From a phage: a DNA stretch of 64,000 nucleotides. This document shows positions 1-59,632 of the stretch, piece after piece. The notes below the pieces were generated by a model. The model searched no databases. It was not told the DNA's origin and worked only from the letters and a program-made list of their open reading frames with translations. The stretch lies in sequence record PX880103.1, one strand, 5' to 3'. Each line of letters opens with the position of its first letter. Position 1 is the first letter of the stretch. The position numbers and the translations under genes are program-made.

Positions 1-639
1 TAACACACCTTCTGGATGAATCTGGCGAGCTTCAGCAGTCATTTTGATTAATTCTTCCTTAAGAAGATCTAATCCTAGATATTCATTACCAGCTCGTGAT
101 AAAAGACGAACATCATCTAATTCATCACCTCTGACTTCAGCAAAGCACCGAGCCCCATCAGCTTTTAACTGGGCAAAGGCTGGAAATTTGATATTCTTAT
201 TAATGCCTTTTTCATCATAAGAACTTGCAAGCATTTGAGGTTGTTCAGGAATTAAACCTGGCCAAACTTTGTTTGCAATAGATACTGAAGCACCACATTC
301 AAGGTCTCGCATCATCACTCGACGCAAAACTTCAACATCATCTTTTTTACCATCGGTGATGTATCCAGTTAATTCCTCAATTGCCGCATTTCCAGTCAAT
401 TTCCGAGTAGCTAACGTGAATTCAATGAAGTCAAGCATATCGGTAAGAGTCAACATTCCAAAACTCTGGGTAGCAATACCAGGTTTAGGCCATTTCTTGA
501 TATAATACTGCAACCCACGAGAATAAGTCAGACGATATACTCGTTTAAGCAATTCATTATCTTTATTCTTTTCAAGAATTGCTTGCTTCTGCTTAGTTGA
601 ACCAATAGATGCTATTTCGTTCAGAATTTTAAGAATCAT
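1..639 (-). CDS. 30: DNA ligase gp30, N-terminal ~213 codons (remainder lies left of the window)
   Basis: Minus-strand ORF with ATG at 639 after AAGGA RBS, running off the left edge; hand translation MILKILNEIASIGST matches the T4 DNA ligase N-terminus as I recall it. Confidence 0.9.
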   Translation of the reverse strand, partial: MILKILNEIASIGSTKQKQAILEKNKDNELLKRVYRLTYSRGLQYYIKKWPKPGIATQSFGMLTLTDMLDFIEFTLATRKLTGNAAIEELTGYITDGKKDDVEVLRRVMMRDLECGASVSIANKVWPGLIPEQPQMLASSYDEKGINKNIKFPAFAQLKADGARCFAEVRGDELDDVRLLSRAGNEYLGLDLLKEELIKMTAEARQIHPEGVL

Positions 640-905
640 TGTTCATCCTTTAGAGTTTGGTTTACAGCTCTATTATAAATCAATTCATCATTAAGCTCAG
701 TCAAAGACCTATGGTACGTGGTTCTAACTTTATTTCCTTGCATCCAATGCTTGACGTAAATGAAACCTTGCTCTACACATTTTTTAAAAATTCGTTCGTC
801 TTTTTGAGCTCGGAATTCTGGATTGCATCTAAAAAATTGATTTACGTGACCATAATCACGTGTAGTATTACCTTCATTTTCATAAATAGTGTGAACGACA
901 AACAT
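636..905 (-). CDS. hypothetical protein (T4 30.1 position)
   Basis: 89-aa ORF; stop overlaps the gene 30 ATG (ATGA coupling). Confidence 0.55.
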   Translation of the reverse strand: MFVVHTIYENEGNTTRDYGHVNQFFRCNPEFRAQKDERIFKKCVEQGFIYVKHWMQGNKVRTTYHRSLTELNDELIYNRAVNQTLKDEQ

Positions 906-1768
906 TAGAATGCTCCTTGGAAAATATTATCACCACTAGTAATTCTATTAAAATACCCTGCGTCGCCAGGCTTAATATAACTCCACGTATGGAATGGATT
1001 CATATGATATAGATGTGTATAATATGGATTATATGGATGTGTATAATATGGATGATATGGATTTAATCCAGGAGTTCTCCATGTAGTATTTTGGCGAAAA
1101 GAATCGTTTTTAACCATCTTCTCAATTACATCTTTTATAGCTTTTTCACTATCAAAACTTTCTTTATTTTCCTTCGGCGAAAAAAGCTTATTTTCTACAT
1201 CATTCCATGTATAAACTCGCTGAGCAGTTTTTGGAATATTGTCACGCTCTCCTCGAGCCATCCAATAAACTGGAACATTTAATATTTCACTCGCATGATC
1301 GCAGTGGTGAGCGAGATCGTCAATATAACAAATTACGTTATATTTCTCTTTTGCCTTTTTGAACAACTCTTCTTTTGAAGAATCATGACCACACATCATT
1401 ACTTCTGAGAAGGCACCAGGAAAAAGAGCATTCAAATTAAATTGACGATTCAACAGAGCGTCAATAGAATCACCCAATGCTGTAACAGCTACAAAATTAT
1501 AATCTTCTTTTAATTTGTTAATTACACACAGGGCATCTTTATATGGAGACAAGTAACGAATAAAATCCGAACGATTGTATTTTTCAATTAACTTGACGCC
1601 AAGTTCTTCATCACAGTTAAAGAGTTTACCAGGAGAAATAAATTTCTCATCCTGGATCATTTTTAAAATATGTTCTAACGGAAGATTATATTTCTGAGCA
1701 AAATAAGGAAGGCCTGATTGCCAGCTTAAACATACTCCATCAATATCAGTTAAAATAGTAGGCTTCAT
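905..1768 (-). CDS. HAD-like hydrolase-family protein with C-terminal Tyr/His/Pro-rich repeat
   Basis: 287-aa ORF; N-terminal LTDIDGV resembles HAD motif I (DxDGx); C-terminus NPYHPYYTHPYNPYYTHLYHMNPFHTW is encoded by a DNA tandem repeat. Confidence 0.6.
   Translation of the reverse strand: MKPTILTDIDGVCLSWQSGLPYFAQKYNLPLEHILKMIQDEKFISPGKLFNCDEELGVKLIEKYNRSDFIRYLSPYKDALCVINKLKEDYNFVAVTALGDSIDALLNRQFNLNALFPGAFSEVMMCGHDSSKEELFKKAKEKYNVICYIDDLAHHCDHASEILNVPVYWMARGERDNIPKTAQRVYTWNDVENKLFSPKENKESFDSEKAIKDVIEKMVKNDSFRQNTTWRTPGLNPYHPYYTHPYNPYYTHLYHMNPFHTWSYIKPGDAGYFNRITSGDNIFQGAF
990..1075. repeat. in-frame tandem repeat (~18-21 nt unit, atgtgtataatatggatt-like) inside the 905..1768 ORF
   Basis: Read directly: repeated atatggat / atgtgtataatatgg units. 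Confidence 0.6.
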
Positions 1769-2229
1769 AAAGAGTCTCTTAATAGGTTTAACACATCAAT
1801 AAATTCAGCTTCGGTTAGTATTGTATCATCTTTTGTTAGACCACTAGCCATGCTGTGCTTCAAAACTTTTCCTTTCGAGGCTTGTAATGCATCACGAAAG
1901 CCCCTGTTTTGGAACGCTGCTTCAAAATATGCATTTGTGTATAATTCTTTCCACGCCGGGGAGTATCTTGAAAACGGAACTCCAAGCCAGAACAACGTGC
2001 CACGATCCTGAGCTCTAGCATAAGACCTTCCAGCTTGTTGGGCGGCAAGCCCGGATAACCCAAATATACGACGTTGCTGTTCAACATTTTTCACCTTACA
2101 CCCTTGGAGGAATCCTTCGAGACCTCCAAATTGAATGCCATCCATAACGAAAGGCCATTGGGCGAAATTACTTAATGCACATGATGGCCATTTAAAATTG
2201 CTTCTTATCTCTAGCTCAGACATTTTCAA
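1765..2229 (-). CDS. NADAR (YbiA-like) domain protein, putative ADP-ribose processing enzyme
   Basis: 154-aa ORF; motif ALSNFAQWPFVMDGIQF...EGFLQGCKV resembles the FSNF..WP..DG...EHYFQA.KF signature of E. coli YbiA as I recall it; size fits. Confidence 0.5.
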   Translation of the reverse strand: MKMSELEIRSNFKWPSCALSNFAQWPFVMDGIQFGGLEGFLQGCKVKNVEQQRRIFGLSGLAAQQAGRSYARAQDRGTLFWLGVPFSRYSPAWKELYTNAYFEAAFQNRGFRDALQASKGKVLKHSMASGLTKDDTILTEAEFIDVLNLLRDSL

Positions 2230-2422
2230 TACTTATAATTTCAACATCAGCCCAATGACCATAGCAAGGAAGACGAAATTCAACTGGCCAGTTAGGGTCC
2301 TTTTCTAATATAATAGACTGAACTTGTGGCTCTTCATATTCATCGGTATACGGACCTTTATACGTTACTTTATATGTGACCTTAATGTACTTAATTCCAA
2401 AAATCTTATTAATTATATTCAT
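2216..2422 (-). CDS. hypothetical protein
   Basis: 68-aa ORF, overlapping stop/start with neighbours. Confidence 0.5.
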   Translation of the reverse strand: MNIINKIFGIKYIKVTYKVTYKGPYTDEYEEPQVQSIILEKDPNWPVEFRLPCYGHWADVEIISIENV

Positions 2423-2616
2423 ACTAATTCCTTTAATCCGTAAATAGGAGATAATTCATCGCCCATACGAAGGTCTTCATTTCCATCTACCCAGGAAACA
2501 ATATAAGCCTCTTTTATTTGAATACCACTCCATTTAAATGGAGGTAGAACCTTAGAAATTAATCCAGGTATACCAACTCCCTTTAATTCAACAGTTTGAC
2601 CTAAAAAGAATTTCAT
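2419..2616 (-). CDS. hypothetical protein
   Basis: 65-aa ORF in translationally coupled chain. Confidence 0.5.
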   Translation of the reverse strand: MKFFLGQTVELKGVGIPGLISKVLPPFKWSGIQIKEAYIVSWVDGNEDLRMGDELSPIYGLKELV

Positions 2617-2903
2617 TAGAACCTCATCTGAAAGCCATGCGATTTAACATTACCGCCGCCAATATCAGAAATATTAATTTCACGCGCAATTGAAGGGTCA
2701 ATGTCAATTTCACGATTGAGTTTAGTGATAGCTAAAGTATCGCGCCCATTTACAGTACGGAACTCTAAAGGACATACTACATTAACGTAGTTTTTAATCG
2801 ATTCGCTGGTAGGTTGCAAATGAGCAGGAAGGTCTTTAGGCGCCTTAGAGAAAACCACTTCACAGAAATTTTTGCGGGTATCAAAATAAGTAGTCATAAA
2901 CAT
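2616..2903 (-). CDS. hypothetical protein
   Basis: 95-aa ORF. Confidence 0.55.
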   Translation of the reverse strand: MFMTTYFDTRKNFCEVVFSKAPKDLPAHLQPTSESIKNYVNVVCPLEFRTVNGRDTLAITKLNREIDIDPSIAREINISDIGGGNVKSHGFQMRF

Positions 2904-2944
2904 AGTATTTTCCTCAGTAAGGGGCCGAAGCCCCTCATTTTATT

Positions 2945-3310
2945 TTAAATATCAAATTCGTTAAGAACTACATCAAAGATTGCTTCAAGATGCTCAGGTT
3001 TAACTCTGTTACTCAGAATATGACGAATCCAAGTTTTAACCAGAAGCTTGCGATTAACGCCATTCCAGCAAGGATGAGTCCCTAAATCACGTTGACGAAA
3101 ATCATCATCCAAAGCGATTTTGAAGTTGGAACCTTTCATTGTGATTGAAACCGTGATGCCATTTTCAAATCGCATATAAACGTAGTTAGGAGTCATATAC
3201 TGTTCAATTTCGCATACTGATCCATTTTGATGTTTCCAAAGGCAAATAGTATCAATAGAACCTGCAATACCATTAGAAACATATTTACGTTCAAAGTTGA
3301 TGTAGTTCAT
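2945..3310 (-). CDS. hypothetical protein
   Basis: 121-aa ORF. Confidence 0.55.
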   Translation of the reverse strand: MNYINFERKYVSNGIAGSIDTICLWKHQNGSVCEIEQYMTPNYVYMRFENGITVSITMKGSNFKIALDDDFRQRDLGTHPCWNGVNRKLLVKTWIRHILSNRVKPEHLEAIFDVVLNEFDI

Positions 3311-3378
3311 TTTTATTCTCCGAGATGTTTAATTGCGGTACAGGTATATAATATCATATCCTGTACCAAAGTAAACAA

Positions 3379-3711
3379 TTATTTTACTACTTTCCAGTGC
3401 TGCATGTCAAGTTTACCAACTTTTTTCATCTTCTCAATTAAGCGTTCTGCGCGTTGGCGAGCTGTAACATAATGCCATTCACCTAATTCATTTTGTTCAA
3501 TTTTTCCAACGATTACTGTATTCAATTCATAAATCCAACCAGTAAAGAAATTATGAACTTGAATTGTAAAGGTGAAATCTGTTCCCATACCTTCTGTTGT
3601 TTCTACTTCAATAATATCACCTTCAACTGCCATTAAGAACCACATAGTTTCATCATATTTACCGTTGAAGCATTTAGTTTTAACTGCAGCGTTCAGATTA
3701 ATTGTTTTCAT
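3379..3711 (-). CDS. hypothetical protein
   Basis: 110-aa ORF preceded by AAGGAG RBS and an early promoter. Confidence 0.6.
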   Translation of the reverse strand: MKTINLNAAVKTKCFNGKYDETMWFLMAVEGDIIEVETTEGMGTDFTFTIQVHNFFTGWIYELNTVIVGKIEQNELGEWHYVTARQRAERLIEKMKKVGKLDMQHWKVVK

Positions 3712-3734
3712 TTTATTCTCCTTTGTTTGTGTAA

Positions 3735-3770
3735 GATAATACTATCACAAAGGAACTATACTGTAAACAA
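3735..3770 (-). promoter_or_regulatory. sigma70-type early promoter (GTTTAC -35, TAGTAT -10 on minus strand)
   Basis: Plus-strand gtaaac at 3763-3768 with a TAnnnT -10 about 17 bp downstream on the minus strand; same architecture recurs throughout the window. Confidence 0.5.
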
Positions 3771-3785
3771 CTTTGTGCAATCTTT

Positions 3786-3817
3786 GGAAAATAAAAAAGG
3801 ACTCCCGAAGGAGTCCT
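3786..3817 (-). terminator. rho-independent terminator (hairpin ggactccttcgggagtcc + T-run on minus strand)
   Basis: Perfect GC-rich stem with TTCG loop followed by TTTTTTATTTT on the minus strand, just downstream of the 3822..3998 ORF. Confidence 0.55.
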
Positions 3818-3821
3818 CAAC

Positions 3822-3998
3822 TTATGCTTTCTGCTTACCAAAACGAGAAGCATCATCTCGAAGAACCGCACGTGCTCGGCGCATGATCTTCTCAACAGTT
3901 TGATTGATACGAGAGTTCGACCCACGCTTGTAACCAGCGCGTTTAGAATCACCAACTTTCTTTTCAACTGCTTTCTTTGCTTTAGCTTGTTTTGCCAT
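3822..3998 (-). CDS. small lysine/arginine-rich protein (58 aa from internal ATG)
   Basis: Track ORF 3822..4040; internal start MAKQAKAKK preferred; terminator immediately downstream. Confidence 0.45.
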   Translation of the reverse strand: MAKQAKAKKAVEKKVGDSKRAGYKRGSNSRINQTVEKIMRRARAVLRDDASRFGKQKA

Positions 3999-4396
3999 TA
4001 TAAATTCTCTTTTAAATGAAAATGCAGGACTTATTGGCATTGCCTGCGCAAGCCCTCAAGGGGAACATAGGTTTTTGGATATTTAACGACCAGGATAACC
4101 ATAAACCCGTCATCATACCTTATAGCTCTTATCTGTTGCACACCGTTAGCTTAAAGGTTCCGGGTTCGATTTCTCGAGGATAAGATATATACTGATGGAT
4201 ATATAGGCCTTGAGGCGTACTCCCGATTGGCCATCACCTCGGGGTAGCATGCACTTGCCGCTATAAGAATAACATTCAAGAGGTACACCGTAAAACTGCC
4301 GGGGTCTTAAAACTATAATGATTCGCAAATCATTAATCAGACAGTTCGACGGCTCCTCGTTTTAACTTCACACTAAGGCAGTGACTCTCCAATAAA

Positions 4397-4645
4397 TTAC
4401 TTCAGTGTTACCACAAAGTGACGAACTGCTTTTCGTGCAGCAGAAGCCAGAGGCTTAGCATATTTAAGTTCATCTTTTTCCTGAAGCTCAGCAGCTAGTG
4501 CAGTTTGAGCAGGATTCAGATGTTTGAAATAACGCAGGATTTCAAGAGCTTCGGCTTCAACATCAATAGATGCGCCATAGTTTTCGTGACCATTATTCCA
4601 TGCGTTTCGTTGCAGTTCAAGAGCGTGTTGTAATTGTTTAATCAT
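4397..4645 (-). CDS. rIII: RIII lysis-inhibition accessory protein
   Basis: 82 aa, same length as T4 RIII; sequence MIKQLQHALELQRNAWNNGHENYG; position upstream of gene 31 as in T4. Confidence 0.85.
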   Translation of the reverse strand: MIKQLQHALELQRNAWNNGHENYGASIDVEAEALEILRYFKHLNPAQTALAAELQEKDELKYAKPLASAARKAVRHFVVTLK

Positions 4646-4792
4646 TTAAAAATTCTCATTAGAGATTAAAACTCAGTAGTCACGTTCTTCTGAATTTCAC
4701 TTCCTTTCGGCAAGTCTCTCAGTTGTAGACTACCACATAGAATTGTTCGGTTAACTTATTATTCCGACACCCAATTCATATTATTATTTATA

Positions 4793-5128
4793 TCACTTAT
4801 AAAGACACGGAATAGCTTTATAGTGACAGGTAACGAATTTTTGTTTAATTTCTTTTGGCTGCTTAAGACCCAGAGCTACAAAAGGATGCGGAACATTTCG
4901 AATTTGACCAACTGGAAGAGAAGTCAAATCGCCAACTTCGCAGAAACCTTTAGGAACATCAGGACCGACAGAGTGAACTACACACAGTTCAGGAACTTCA
5001 CCTTGGACACGTTTACCAATAATAAGTCCTGATTCTGTAACTTCTTCATCACCGGCTTGTGCAGGTTCAGAAACTAAAATAACATATTCACCGACAGCAC
5101 TAATTGGTAGCTGTTGTACTTCAGACAT
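4793..5128 (-). CDS. 31: gp31 co-chaperonin (GroES-like) for head assembly
   Basis: 111 aa, T4 gp31 length and position; flexible-loop-like region. Confidence 0.88.
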
Positions 5129-5184
5129 CGTTTTTCCTTTTTGTTAACAGATGAATTAATAATAACAAATAATTCTTAAAGCAT

Positions 5185-5493
5185 TTATTTACCAATAAAT
5201 TGGAGTAAATGCTCAACTTTCATACCATTAACGGAAATCAATTTGTCAATAGAAAAACCTCGCCATGCACCAAGCTCAACATCAAATACTGGAATCATGT
5301 CAGTAGATTCTTTCCGAGTAGATTCAGTCAATTTGCCAGTTTGCATGGTTGGCATAAAGTCTGCATCACGAGTACCTTTCATAGTACGAATAGTACCATC
5401 AGACTTTTCAAAAACTACGTTTGAAACACCCATGGACAATTTAGTTTTCAAAATTTCACGAATTGCTACTTTCTGCTCAGTTGTCAGTTTCAT
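5185..5493 (-). CDS. hypothetical protein (31.1 position)
   Basis: 102-aa ORF. Confidence 0.55.
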   Translation of the reverse strand: MKLTTEQKVAIREILKTKLSMGVSNVVFEKSDGTIRTMKGTRDADFMPTMQTGKLTESTRKESTDMIPVFDVELGAWRGFSIDKLISVNGMKVEHLLQFIGK

Positions 5494-52671: not shown

Positions 52672-53274
52672 TTATAGATTAAATCCTTCAAAATCAAGAG
52701 TATAGATAGTGTATGTTGAATACTTTTTGTACTCATATCTGTCTGCAATTCTAAATACACTTCCAGCTGGTATCATTACTTCTTGTTCATCTGAAACTAA
52801 TTCCATATTACGATAACGATGGCTATCCGGAAACTTAAAGTTTGGATTGTATTCTTTACAGCGTAGAGCTTTTATAGCATACTCCTGGAAATTGAATACC
52901 ATAGGAGCTTTGAATTCAAAAATAACTTGTGTGTTATACTCTAAACCGGAAGCAAAATGTAGAGCTATATTTTTATCATATGAAGCTGATACTACTTTAT
53001 CAAATGTAATAATATCAATTCCTTGATTTAATACTTGTTTAGTCTCAGCTGGAACACCTCTCCAAAGAGGTTTATCGTTTGGAACCAAACGAGATTTGAT
53101 TATTTCATTTAACCAAGAATGATCGTCTGGTTTATTAGTAATACAATGAATTAAAAGTTCAATTTCAGATAAATTAAACCCTTCAGAAAGTAATTCTTCA
53201 CGAATAGAAGCACGCACCGATGCATCCATTGATTTTATTTTAAAATCTTTTAGTTGCATTACTGAGTATTTCAT
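52672..53274 (-). CDS. modA: ModA ADP-ribosyltransferase
   Basis: 200 aa = T4 ModA length; R-S-E ART motifs (LWRG, SAS, EQEVMIP). Confidence 0.85.
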   Translation of the reverse strand: MKYSVMQLKDFKIKSMDASVRASIREELLSEGFNLSEIELLIHCITNKPDDHSWLNEIIKSRLVPNDKPLWRGVPAETKQVLNQGIDIITFDKVVSASYDKNIALHFASGLEYNTQVIFEFKAPMVFNFQEYAIKALRCKEYNPNFKFPDSHRYRNMELVSDEQEVMIPAGSVFRIADRYEYKKYSTYTIYTLDFEGFNL

Positions 53275-53894
53275 TCAACTACCTCAATATCATAAACTTT
53301 AAATGTTCCAAATGAATCGTGTAATTTTTCTTTTGAAATAGAAGTTATTCTATACTTTCCAATTGGAATCATCCATTCTTGTTCACGCACAATCATCATT
53401 AAGTTATCAGTACGCTCTGAATCTAGCCCATCAGTATCTTCATATGTGTACTTAAACTCAGTATTAGGAGAAGAAAGTATAATATCGCTGATATGGTCAG
53501 AATAATTAAAAGCTTTATTAGTTTTTAAGCGAAGTATTATTTTAGTAAAATATTCAGCATAAGAAAAAGAACATGCTGTGAGCAAACTAGTAGTAAATGA
53601 ATCTACTCTATTCGTTGAAAACACTTCTCCAACTTGTAAATCTTTAATAAGTTCTTCTGTTGATTTTGATATACCACGATATAACTGATAAGGCGATTTA
53701 GTTAAATGCTTTTTAATGATTTTATTCAACTGCCTATGAAGAGCTTCATTCTTTTTGGCTTCCATACATTGCCAAAGAATGGATTGTTCAAAGTCGGTAA
53801 ATTTTTCACAGACCTTTTTATACATATCATATTGAAAATCGACGCTTTCAGCTTTTATAGATAACTGTTCAACATCTGTAAGATTAATAATCAT
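53271..53894 (-). CDS. modB: ModB ADP-ribosyltransferase
   Basis: 207 aa = T4 ModB length; R-S-E motifs (LYRG, STN, EQEWMIP); ATGA-coupled to modA. Confidence 0.85.
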   Translation of the reverse strand: MIINLTDVEQLSIKAESVDFQYDMYKKVCEKFTDFEQSILWQCMEAKKNEALHRQLNKIIKKHLTKSPYQLYRGISKSTEELIKDLQVGEVFSTNRVDSFTTSLLTACSFSYAEYFTKIILRLKTNKAFNYSDHISDIILSSPNTEFKYTYEDTDGLDSERTDNLMMIVREQEWMIPIGKYRITSISKEKLHDSFGTFKVYDIEVVE

Positions 53895-59005: not shown

Positions 59006-59632
59006 TTAACCTCTATTCATAAAAGCATTAAAAATTTGGTCATCAATAGAAACATTTACTTTAGACTGTTTTTCTGATGGTAATTCATATCCACATATTA
59101 CAATTTTGTGATCAATATCAAAATACACAGAAGCAATATGATTAATGATGTTTTCAGTAAAGTCTAAATCAACATCAATATCTTTTTGACCACAGCCCAA
59201 AGGATAAATAATGCGAGTAATTCGATTATCTTTAACAAAGATTCCACCGACATACTCTGTGCTGCGTTTAAAGTCTACACGCCGACGAAATGAAAAATAT
59301 TCAGGCTCTTTATGAGCTCGGCTCATAGGGCACAACGAATAACTAGAATAAGAGATGTCAAATCCTACGCCTTCAATATGAACTAAATTGTCATGATTAA
59401 ACCAATTATAATCATATGCCAAGTCCATTAGATTGTCATATGTGAAAGGCACCGGATTAACATCATTGGTCACAAGCATATAATTAGCAACTGCTATAAT
59501 TTCATTATTTTTAACGAATACAAACCGTGATTGATGCGAATGACCTGGACCTGCGTTTTCACGATTAATGATATAACACTGGGCACCTTTATATTTGTAC
59601 GTGTCTTTACACTTGTGCATTTGATAAAGCAT
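59006..59632 (-). CDS. 61.2-position protein, possible AdfA (anti-DarT factor) homolog
   Basis: 208-aa ORF between 61.1 and sp; T4 gene 61.2 at this position is, as I recall, the locus where DarTG escape (adfA) maps. Confidence 0.5.
   Translation of the reverse strand: MLYQMHKCKDTYKYKGAQCYIINRENAGPGHSHQSRFVFVKNNEIIAVANYMLVTNDVNPVPFTYDNLMDLAYDYNWFNHDNLVHIEGVGFDISYSSYSLCPMSRAHKEPEYFSFRRRVDFKRSTEYVGGIFVKDNRITRIIYPLGCGQKDIDVDLDFTENIINHIASVYFDIDHKIVICGYELPSEKQSKVNVSIDDQIFNAFMNRG

Follow-up and report, generated by a model that had tools for sequence, protein, structure and literature searches.

The minus-strand gene described here, which lies in a 64,000-nucleotide stretch of phage DNA (sequence record PX880103.1; hereafter the window), is very probably the orthologue of T4 gene 30.3, now called adfN, and as such would encode a single-domain NADAR protein that counters the bacterial DarTG1 system. 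The window comes from a phage of the T4 type (Tequatrovirus), with 761 phage records matching its first 4 kb at a best identity of 97-98%, and the gene layout obtained by tblastn with T4 proteins (Table 1) follows the T4 order of ligase 30, 30.1, 30.2, 30.3 and 30.4. Nucleotide identity to T4 amounts to 98% across 30.3, including both of its junctions, and the window protein is identical to T4 gp30.3 at 148 of its 152 residues (97%), with no gaps. It also matches the Pfam family PF08010 (Phage_30_3) over the entire model, from profile position 1 to 138 of 138, with a score of 231.5 bits (cut-off 36; E=3.1e-69), and both comparisons, being far beyond chance, confirm that the ORF is real. Orthology, synteny, fold and conservation of key residues were all demonstrated here, and nothing encountered contradicts the AdfN reading of its gene.

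The original prediction had this ORF running from 1765 to 2229 with a NADAR-like signature, and most of that description holds. The ORF does span 1765..2229 on the minus strand, and the quoted motif is found inside it (L17-S-N-F-AQ-WP-FVM-DG-IQFGGL-E-G-F-L-Q-GC-K43); the stop codon is likewise correct, and it is only the start that has to be moved. Position 2229 is the beginning of a TTG codon situated two codons upstream of an ATG at 2223..2221, and the latter is the likelier start, because it yields a product of 152 aa, exactly the annotated length of T4 gp30.3, because the published catalytic residues then number E36 and K43, and because this ATG overlaps the TGA stop of the preceding gene 30.4 (ATGTCTGA). 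A second overlap, of the ATGA type, joins the 30.3 stop to the start of 30.2, and the two junctions together suggest translational coupling within one operon. From where might such an operon be transcribed? A promoter scan of positions 1..5200 returned 22 promoter-like sites, where 16.5±4.6 would be expected, and no minus-strand site directly precedes 30.3; the gene is probably reached by read-through from promoters located farther upstream, with no firm conclusion to be drawn on this point. Terminator-like hairpins in the same interval did not exceed in total what is seen in shuffled sequence, and among them are two GC-rich hairpins followed by a T run, one at 3797..3818 (-), on the coding strand, separating 30.9 from 30.8, and one at 2920..2935 (+), on the opposite strand, separating 30.7 from 30.6. 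The G+C content of 30.3 (~0.42, calculated over 1801..2250) stands above that of the flanking 30.2 and 30.4-30.5 (0.33-0.35), which would fit, and does not prove, the cellular origin that has been proposed for phage NADARs.

Table 1. Coordinates of adfN (30.3), of its sequence features and of the neighbouring and related genes in the window
Feature	Position	Strand	Remarks
Ligase gp30, N-terminal part	1..639		ligase start at 639; tblastn with T4 protein
30.1	636..905		tblastn with T4 protein
30.2	905..1768	-	tblastn with T4 protein
adfN (gene 30.3) CDS	1765..2223	-	152 aa + stop; very probable phage-clade NADAR DNA ADP-ribosylglycohydrolase; tblastn with T4 protein
30.4	2216..2422		tblastn with T4 protein
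Start/stop overlap of 30.3 with upstream 30.4 (ATGTCTGA)	2216..2223	-	sequence
ATGA overlap of 30.3 stop with downstream 30.2 start	1765..1768	-	sequence
S18-N19-F20 codons ('SNF', N-terminal NADAR motif)	2164..2172	-	invariant n=63; aligned by profile with YbiA S30-N31-F32
E36..K43 codons (E-G-F-L-Q-G-C-K), catalytic Glu/Lys motif	2095..2118	-	E36, G37, F38, Q40 and K43 invariant n=63; aligned by profile with YbiA E48..K55; E36 codon GAA at 2118..2116, K43 codon AAG at 2097..2095
H123 codon CAC	1855..1857	-	invariant n=63; just past last predicted strand (120-122)
Codons 138-152, C-terminal helix	1768..1812	-	helix 138-151 in model; identical to T4
30.3'	1860..2087	-	+1 frame inside 30.3; 75 aa, 89% identical to T4
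ModA	52675..53274		tblastn with T4 protein
ModB	53274..53894		tblastn with T4 protein
gp61.2 (AdfA) homologue	59009..59632	-	98.6% identical to T4 protein

The NADAR/YbiA-like assignment, originally made from the motif, is borne out by family profiles and a predicted structure. Taken alone, the window protein does not match the Pfam NADAR model PF08719 at E<=1, a phmmer search of PDB sequences with this single sequence retrieved no NADAR chain (the best match, E=0.76, was spurious), an NCBIfam search gave nothing relevant, and the PADLOC defence models matched neither gp30.3 nor gp30.2. A database search, on the other hand, yielded 97 homologues, all carrying PF08010; several of those from JGI bear the name 'YbiA (DUF1768 family)' and one (P0073) contains both PF08010 and PF08719. 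When 63 full-length members with identities as low as 35% were aligned, nine of them proved to match PF08719 directly (best E=1.5e-7). Since the window protein has no such match of its own and some members of its family do, its sequence link to NADAR is transitive. A profile built from the 63 members found E. coli YbiA (2b3w; E=0.005) as its sole match in the PDB, with the two conserved motifs falling on their YbiA counterparts (Table 1). The AlphaFold2 model computed from the family alignment (pLDDT 94.1, pTM 0.89) likewise has YbiA as its best Foldseek match (E=1.5e-4), so that profiles and predicted structure together support a NADAR/YbiA fold for the 30.3 protein.

Does the window allele also retain what the enzyme needs in order to work? 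Positions invariant throughout the 63-member alignment include S18, N19, F20, E36, G37, F38, Q40, K43 and H123, and the alignment thus brought no loss of catalytic residues, E36, Q40, K43 and H123 all being present in every member. In T4 AdfN, the E36A and K43A substitutions impair the protein (PMC11825919). The residue of the last strand is known to distinguish groups of NADARs, being His in those of phages, Glu in the YbiA family and Asp in DarG1 (PMC11125620, PMC11543638). The C-terminal end matters as well: phage RB69 carries a frameshift in 30.3 that removes the last 15 residues, i.e. the C-terminal helix, and is DarTG1-sensitive for that reason, and shortening T4 AdfN at its C-terminus reduces its activity (PMC11825919). 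The window protein ends ...LNLLRDSL, as in T4, and is of full length, unlike the RB69 allele. It departs from T4 gp30.3 by only four conservative substitutions (R11K, I104F, K107R and I125M), none of which falls in an invariant column and which should therefore leave its function unchanged. Because E36, K43, H123 and a C-terminal helix identical to that of T4 are all in place, and the substitutions avoid the invariant columns, we infer with high confidence that the window allele encodes a functional AdfN.

Published work on the T4 protein has established both its enzymatic activity and its counter-defence phenotype. T4 gp30.3 (NP_049816.1) is AdfN, the 'anti-DarT factor NADAR' (Johannesman et al., Nat Commun 2025, PMC11825919): phage crosses mapped DarTG1 resistance to gene 30.3, which was renamed adfN, its deletion rendered T4 DarTG1-sensitive, AdfN(T4) supplied to RB69 restored plaquing, and the purified protein strips ADP-ribose from DarT1-modified DNA (PMC11825919). 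For the alleles of T4 and of T2 alike, deletions, complementation and crosses between phages have demonstrated resistance to DarTG1 during infection. NADARs had been recognized before as the antitoxins of DarTG1 systems, in which they hydrolyse guanine-ADPr (Schuller et al. 2023, PMC11543638), and in vitro T4 gp30.3 hydrolyses guanosine-ADPr and not thymidine-ADPr (Toxins 2024, PMC11125620); cytidine-ADPr is not removed by the T4 NADAR either (2026, PMC12945103). The counter-defence against a DarT-type toxin that had been proposed for the window gene has thus been verified on a protein 97% identical to its product (PMC11825919, PMC11125620, PMC12945103). As regards the substrate, for which guanine or thymine had been suggested, the literature on the T4 protein upholds the former (guanine-ADPr; DarT1/DarTG1) and speaks against the latter (thymine-ADPr; DarT2/DarTG2); given this specificity for guanine only, a thymine assay and DarTG2-carrying hosts would be expected to give negative results. 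One detail of the Toxins study deserves a comment. Its Methods section 4.2 describes the construct as 'gp30.3; residues 1-208', though gp30.3 has 152 aa. A length of 208 aa is, by coincidence, that of gp61.2/AdfA; the worry that this other protein was the one assayed is answered by the supplement, which gives the accession NP_049816.1, i.e. T4 30.3, and the stated length is probably a typographical error (PMC11125620). AdfA has been published, alongside AdfN, as the second anti-DarT1 factor, and the window thereby contains both known DarTG1 counter-defence genes (Table 1); T4 from which adfA alone has been deleted shows no DarTG1 sensitivity.

The mechanism that we favour for the window gene would operate as follows. 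The DarT1 toxin of a host DarTG1 system would ADP-ribosylate guanine in the phage DNA and block its replication, and AdfN would cut the guanine–ADP-ribose bond to regenerate unmodified DNA, thereby acting as a phage-borne 'orphan antitoxin'. The active site would be formed by two residues of the E-x3-Q-x2-K motif, E36 and K43, with the motif contacting the ADP-ribose; H123 would probably also belong to it, taking the place of the Glu/Asp of cellular NADARs such as Glu125 in the P. nicotianae NADAR and Asp171 in that of E. coli C7, and the C-terminal helix would be needed for full activity.

How does this scheme accommodate the finding that T4 AdfN is fully effective only in T-even infection, giving weak help to non-T-even phages? 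An explanation that we consider rather unlikely would make gp30.3 dependent on a partner or a substrate context found only in T-even infection (another early gene product, or the replication/recombination machinery), or else would give it a second physiological substrate tied to Alt, ModA or ModB. In the strongest version of the latter idea, which in our judgement is very improbable, the enzyme would deal primarily with ADP-ribosylation brought about by the phage's own Alt, ModA and ModB, for instance with their off-target marks on nucleic acids, and its anti-DarT1 action would be secondary. Besides the restriction to T-even infection, such a role would agree with the location of Alt, just past the ligase in T4 and in a T-even-like relative (L008), and with the occurrence of ModA and ModB in the window. 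The original prediction invoked these two transferases, and they are indeed present; as support for the function of 30.3 they do not serve, being ~50 kb away with no link found. Neither the AdfN papers cited here nor the present analysis offers a connection to Alt, ModA or ModB, distant genes of the gp30.3 family have no Alt-like neighbour within 5 kb, and T4 requires 30.3 for DarTG1 resistance, with a phenotype that follows the allele, as illustrated by the truncated version in the sensitive RB69. The gp30.2 protein was also considered as a conserved AdfN partner that would explain the T-even dependence; this candidate was rejected, since no gp30.2 lies within ~5 kb of the 30.3-family member in any of three distinct contexts outside the T-even group.

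The window protein could be a metabolic N-glycosidase resembling E. coli YbiA, which acts on reactive intermediates of the riboflavin pathway, rather than a DNA de-ADP-ribosylase, a reading to which we attach next to no probability. It draws on YbiA being both the top Foldseek match and the sole PDB match of the family profile, and on the fact that YbiA was first characterized in riboflavin metabolism (PMC11543638). However, the last-strand Glu that defines YbiA is replaced in the 30.3 family by an invariant His, guanine-ADPr is hydrolysed in vitro by YbiA as well (PMC11125620), and for the T4 protein DNA guanine-ADPr hydrolase activity and DarTG1 counter-defence have both been demonstrated. 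Just as implausible is the suggestion that the functional product, instead of or besides gp30.3, is the overlapping +1-frame ORF 30.3', for although its 75-codon frame is open in T4 and in the window and T4 annotates an internal translation product, all profile and fold evidence comes from the 30.3 frame, and the overlap differs between T4 and the window at 10 nucleotides, seven of them third positions of 30.3 codons; together these 10 changes alter two amino acids in gp30.3 and eight in 30.3', a pattern of purifying selection on 30.3 only, on the basis of which 30.3' was rejected. The corresponding +1 frame of the relative L008 is open over a stretch of 126 codons.

Reading the window gene as adfN also clarifies how it relates to the NADARs already described. 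With T4 gp30.3 (NP_049816.1), it shares the flanking genes, the start/stop overlaps, the catalytic residues and the intact C-terminal helix. DarG1 antitoxins, such as the Geobacter lovleyi NADAR (PDB 8BAT) or that of E. coli C7, are by contrast paired with darT1, whereas no DarT1 toxin gene accompanies 30.3 in its operon; its neighbours are 30.4 and 30.2, and it is an orphan gene in a lytic phage. DarG1 furthermore possesses an N-terminal extension, which forms a DNA channel, and a last-strand Asp; the window protein has neither, carries His123 instead, and comprises the core domain only (152 aa compared with 219 aa in DarG1 8BAT), as reported for the phage NADAR (PMC12945103). E. coli is not protected from DarT1 by T4 gp30.3 (PMC11125620), and T4 AdfN cannot replace DarG1 as antitoxin in uninfected cells. 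E. coli YbiA (PDB 2B3W), the founder of the YbiA/NADAR fold, is only ~18-20% identical to the window protein and has Glu instead of His in the last strand; it is a host enzyme, encoded in a LexA-controlled operon and with a riboflavin-related N-glycosidase role, as opposed to a phage enzyme. AdfN(Bas32) and AdfN(Bas60) of T5-like and Vequintavirinae phages are likewise orphan phage NADARs; they act against DarTG1, with guanine-ADPr as their specific substrate. They belong to other NADAR clades, were probably acquired independently, and neutralize DarT1 without infection, which AdfN of the T4 type does not.

Is there anything in the neighbourhood of 30.3 that travels with it? The gene had been described as lying beside the DNA ligase gene; it is indeed near, and not directly adjacent, since two small genes, 30.1 and 30.2, intervene. 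In T-even-like relatives, too, the ligase is found two genes from 30.3 (L008 5001..7994), and in a distant phage contig (L005/L006; 1..1186, 5001..5456) it lies ~4 kb from a gp30.3-family gene, together with a CHAP/PG_binding endolysin. No ligase occurs within ~5 kb of the family gene in L003, L004 and L007, and the proximity of the two genes may merely reflect a coincidence of early-gene clusters. The situation with gp30.2 is comparable: it adjoins 30.3 in the T-even-like relative L008/L009 (58% identical) and, in the three distinct contexts surveyed outside the T-even group (L003-L007), is not found within ~5 kb of the gp30.3-family genes, so that T-even synteny alone accounts for its occurrence together with gp30.3. 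The window gp30.2 is a protein of 287 aa that begins with a HAD-like motif (MKPTILTDIDGV) and has no sequence match in Pfam or the PDB; its weak PHROGs match is to polynucleotide kinase (HAD/polynucleotide-kinase-like). It is 90% identical to its T4 counterpart and differs from it mainly in a Pro/Tyr/His-rich C-terminal tail (NPYHPYYTHPYNPYYTHLYHMNPF), where it also has 10 extra residues.

What is the significance of recognizing adfN in yet another genome? The function of 30.3/AdfN is already known in detail from bioinformatics (2012, 2023), biochemistry (2024, 2026) and genetics (2025), and no new biology is added here to the 2023-2026 papers; the value lies in annotation, and the gene clearly illustrates how a phage-borne 'orphan antitoxin' can reverse a host defence that modifies DNA. 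In most of the phage records that match best, 30.3 is still labelled 'hypothetical protein' and could be relabelled as adfN. Such labels would be of practical use in choosing or engineering therapeutic T4-like phages, because an intact adfN predicts DarTG1 resistance and a truncated or deleted one predicts sensitivity. By analogy with RB69, phages with disrupted 30.3 alleles may be sensitive, and such alleles are found in many T4-like phage and metagenome records (P0004-P0007, P0013-P0018, P0020, P0046, P0090), even if some of these could be artefacts of assembly or gene calling. In some of them, a deletion has joined the C-terminal part of gp30.3 to an N-terminus from 30.7, 30.8 or 30.4; in others, a frameshift leads from one of the two frames (30.3 and 30.3') into the other, or the call begins at M27 or later. 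Examples of phages with a disrupted 30.3 are SV76, vB_Eco_NR1, UGJNEcP4 and vB_EcoM-RPN226.
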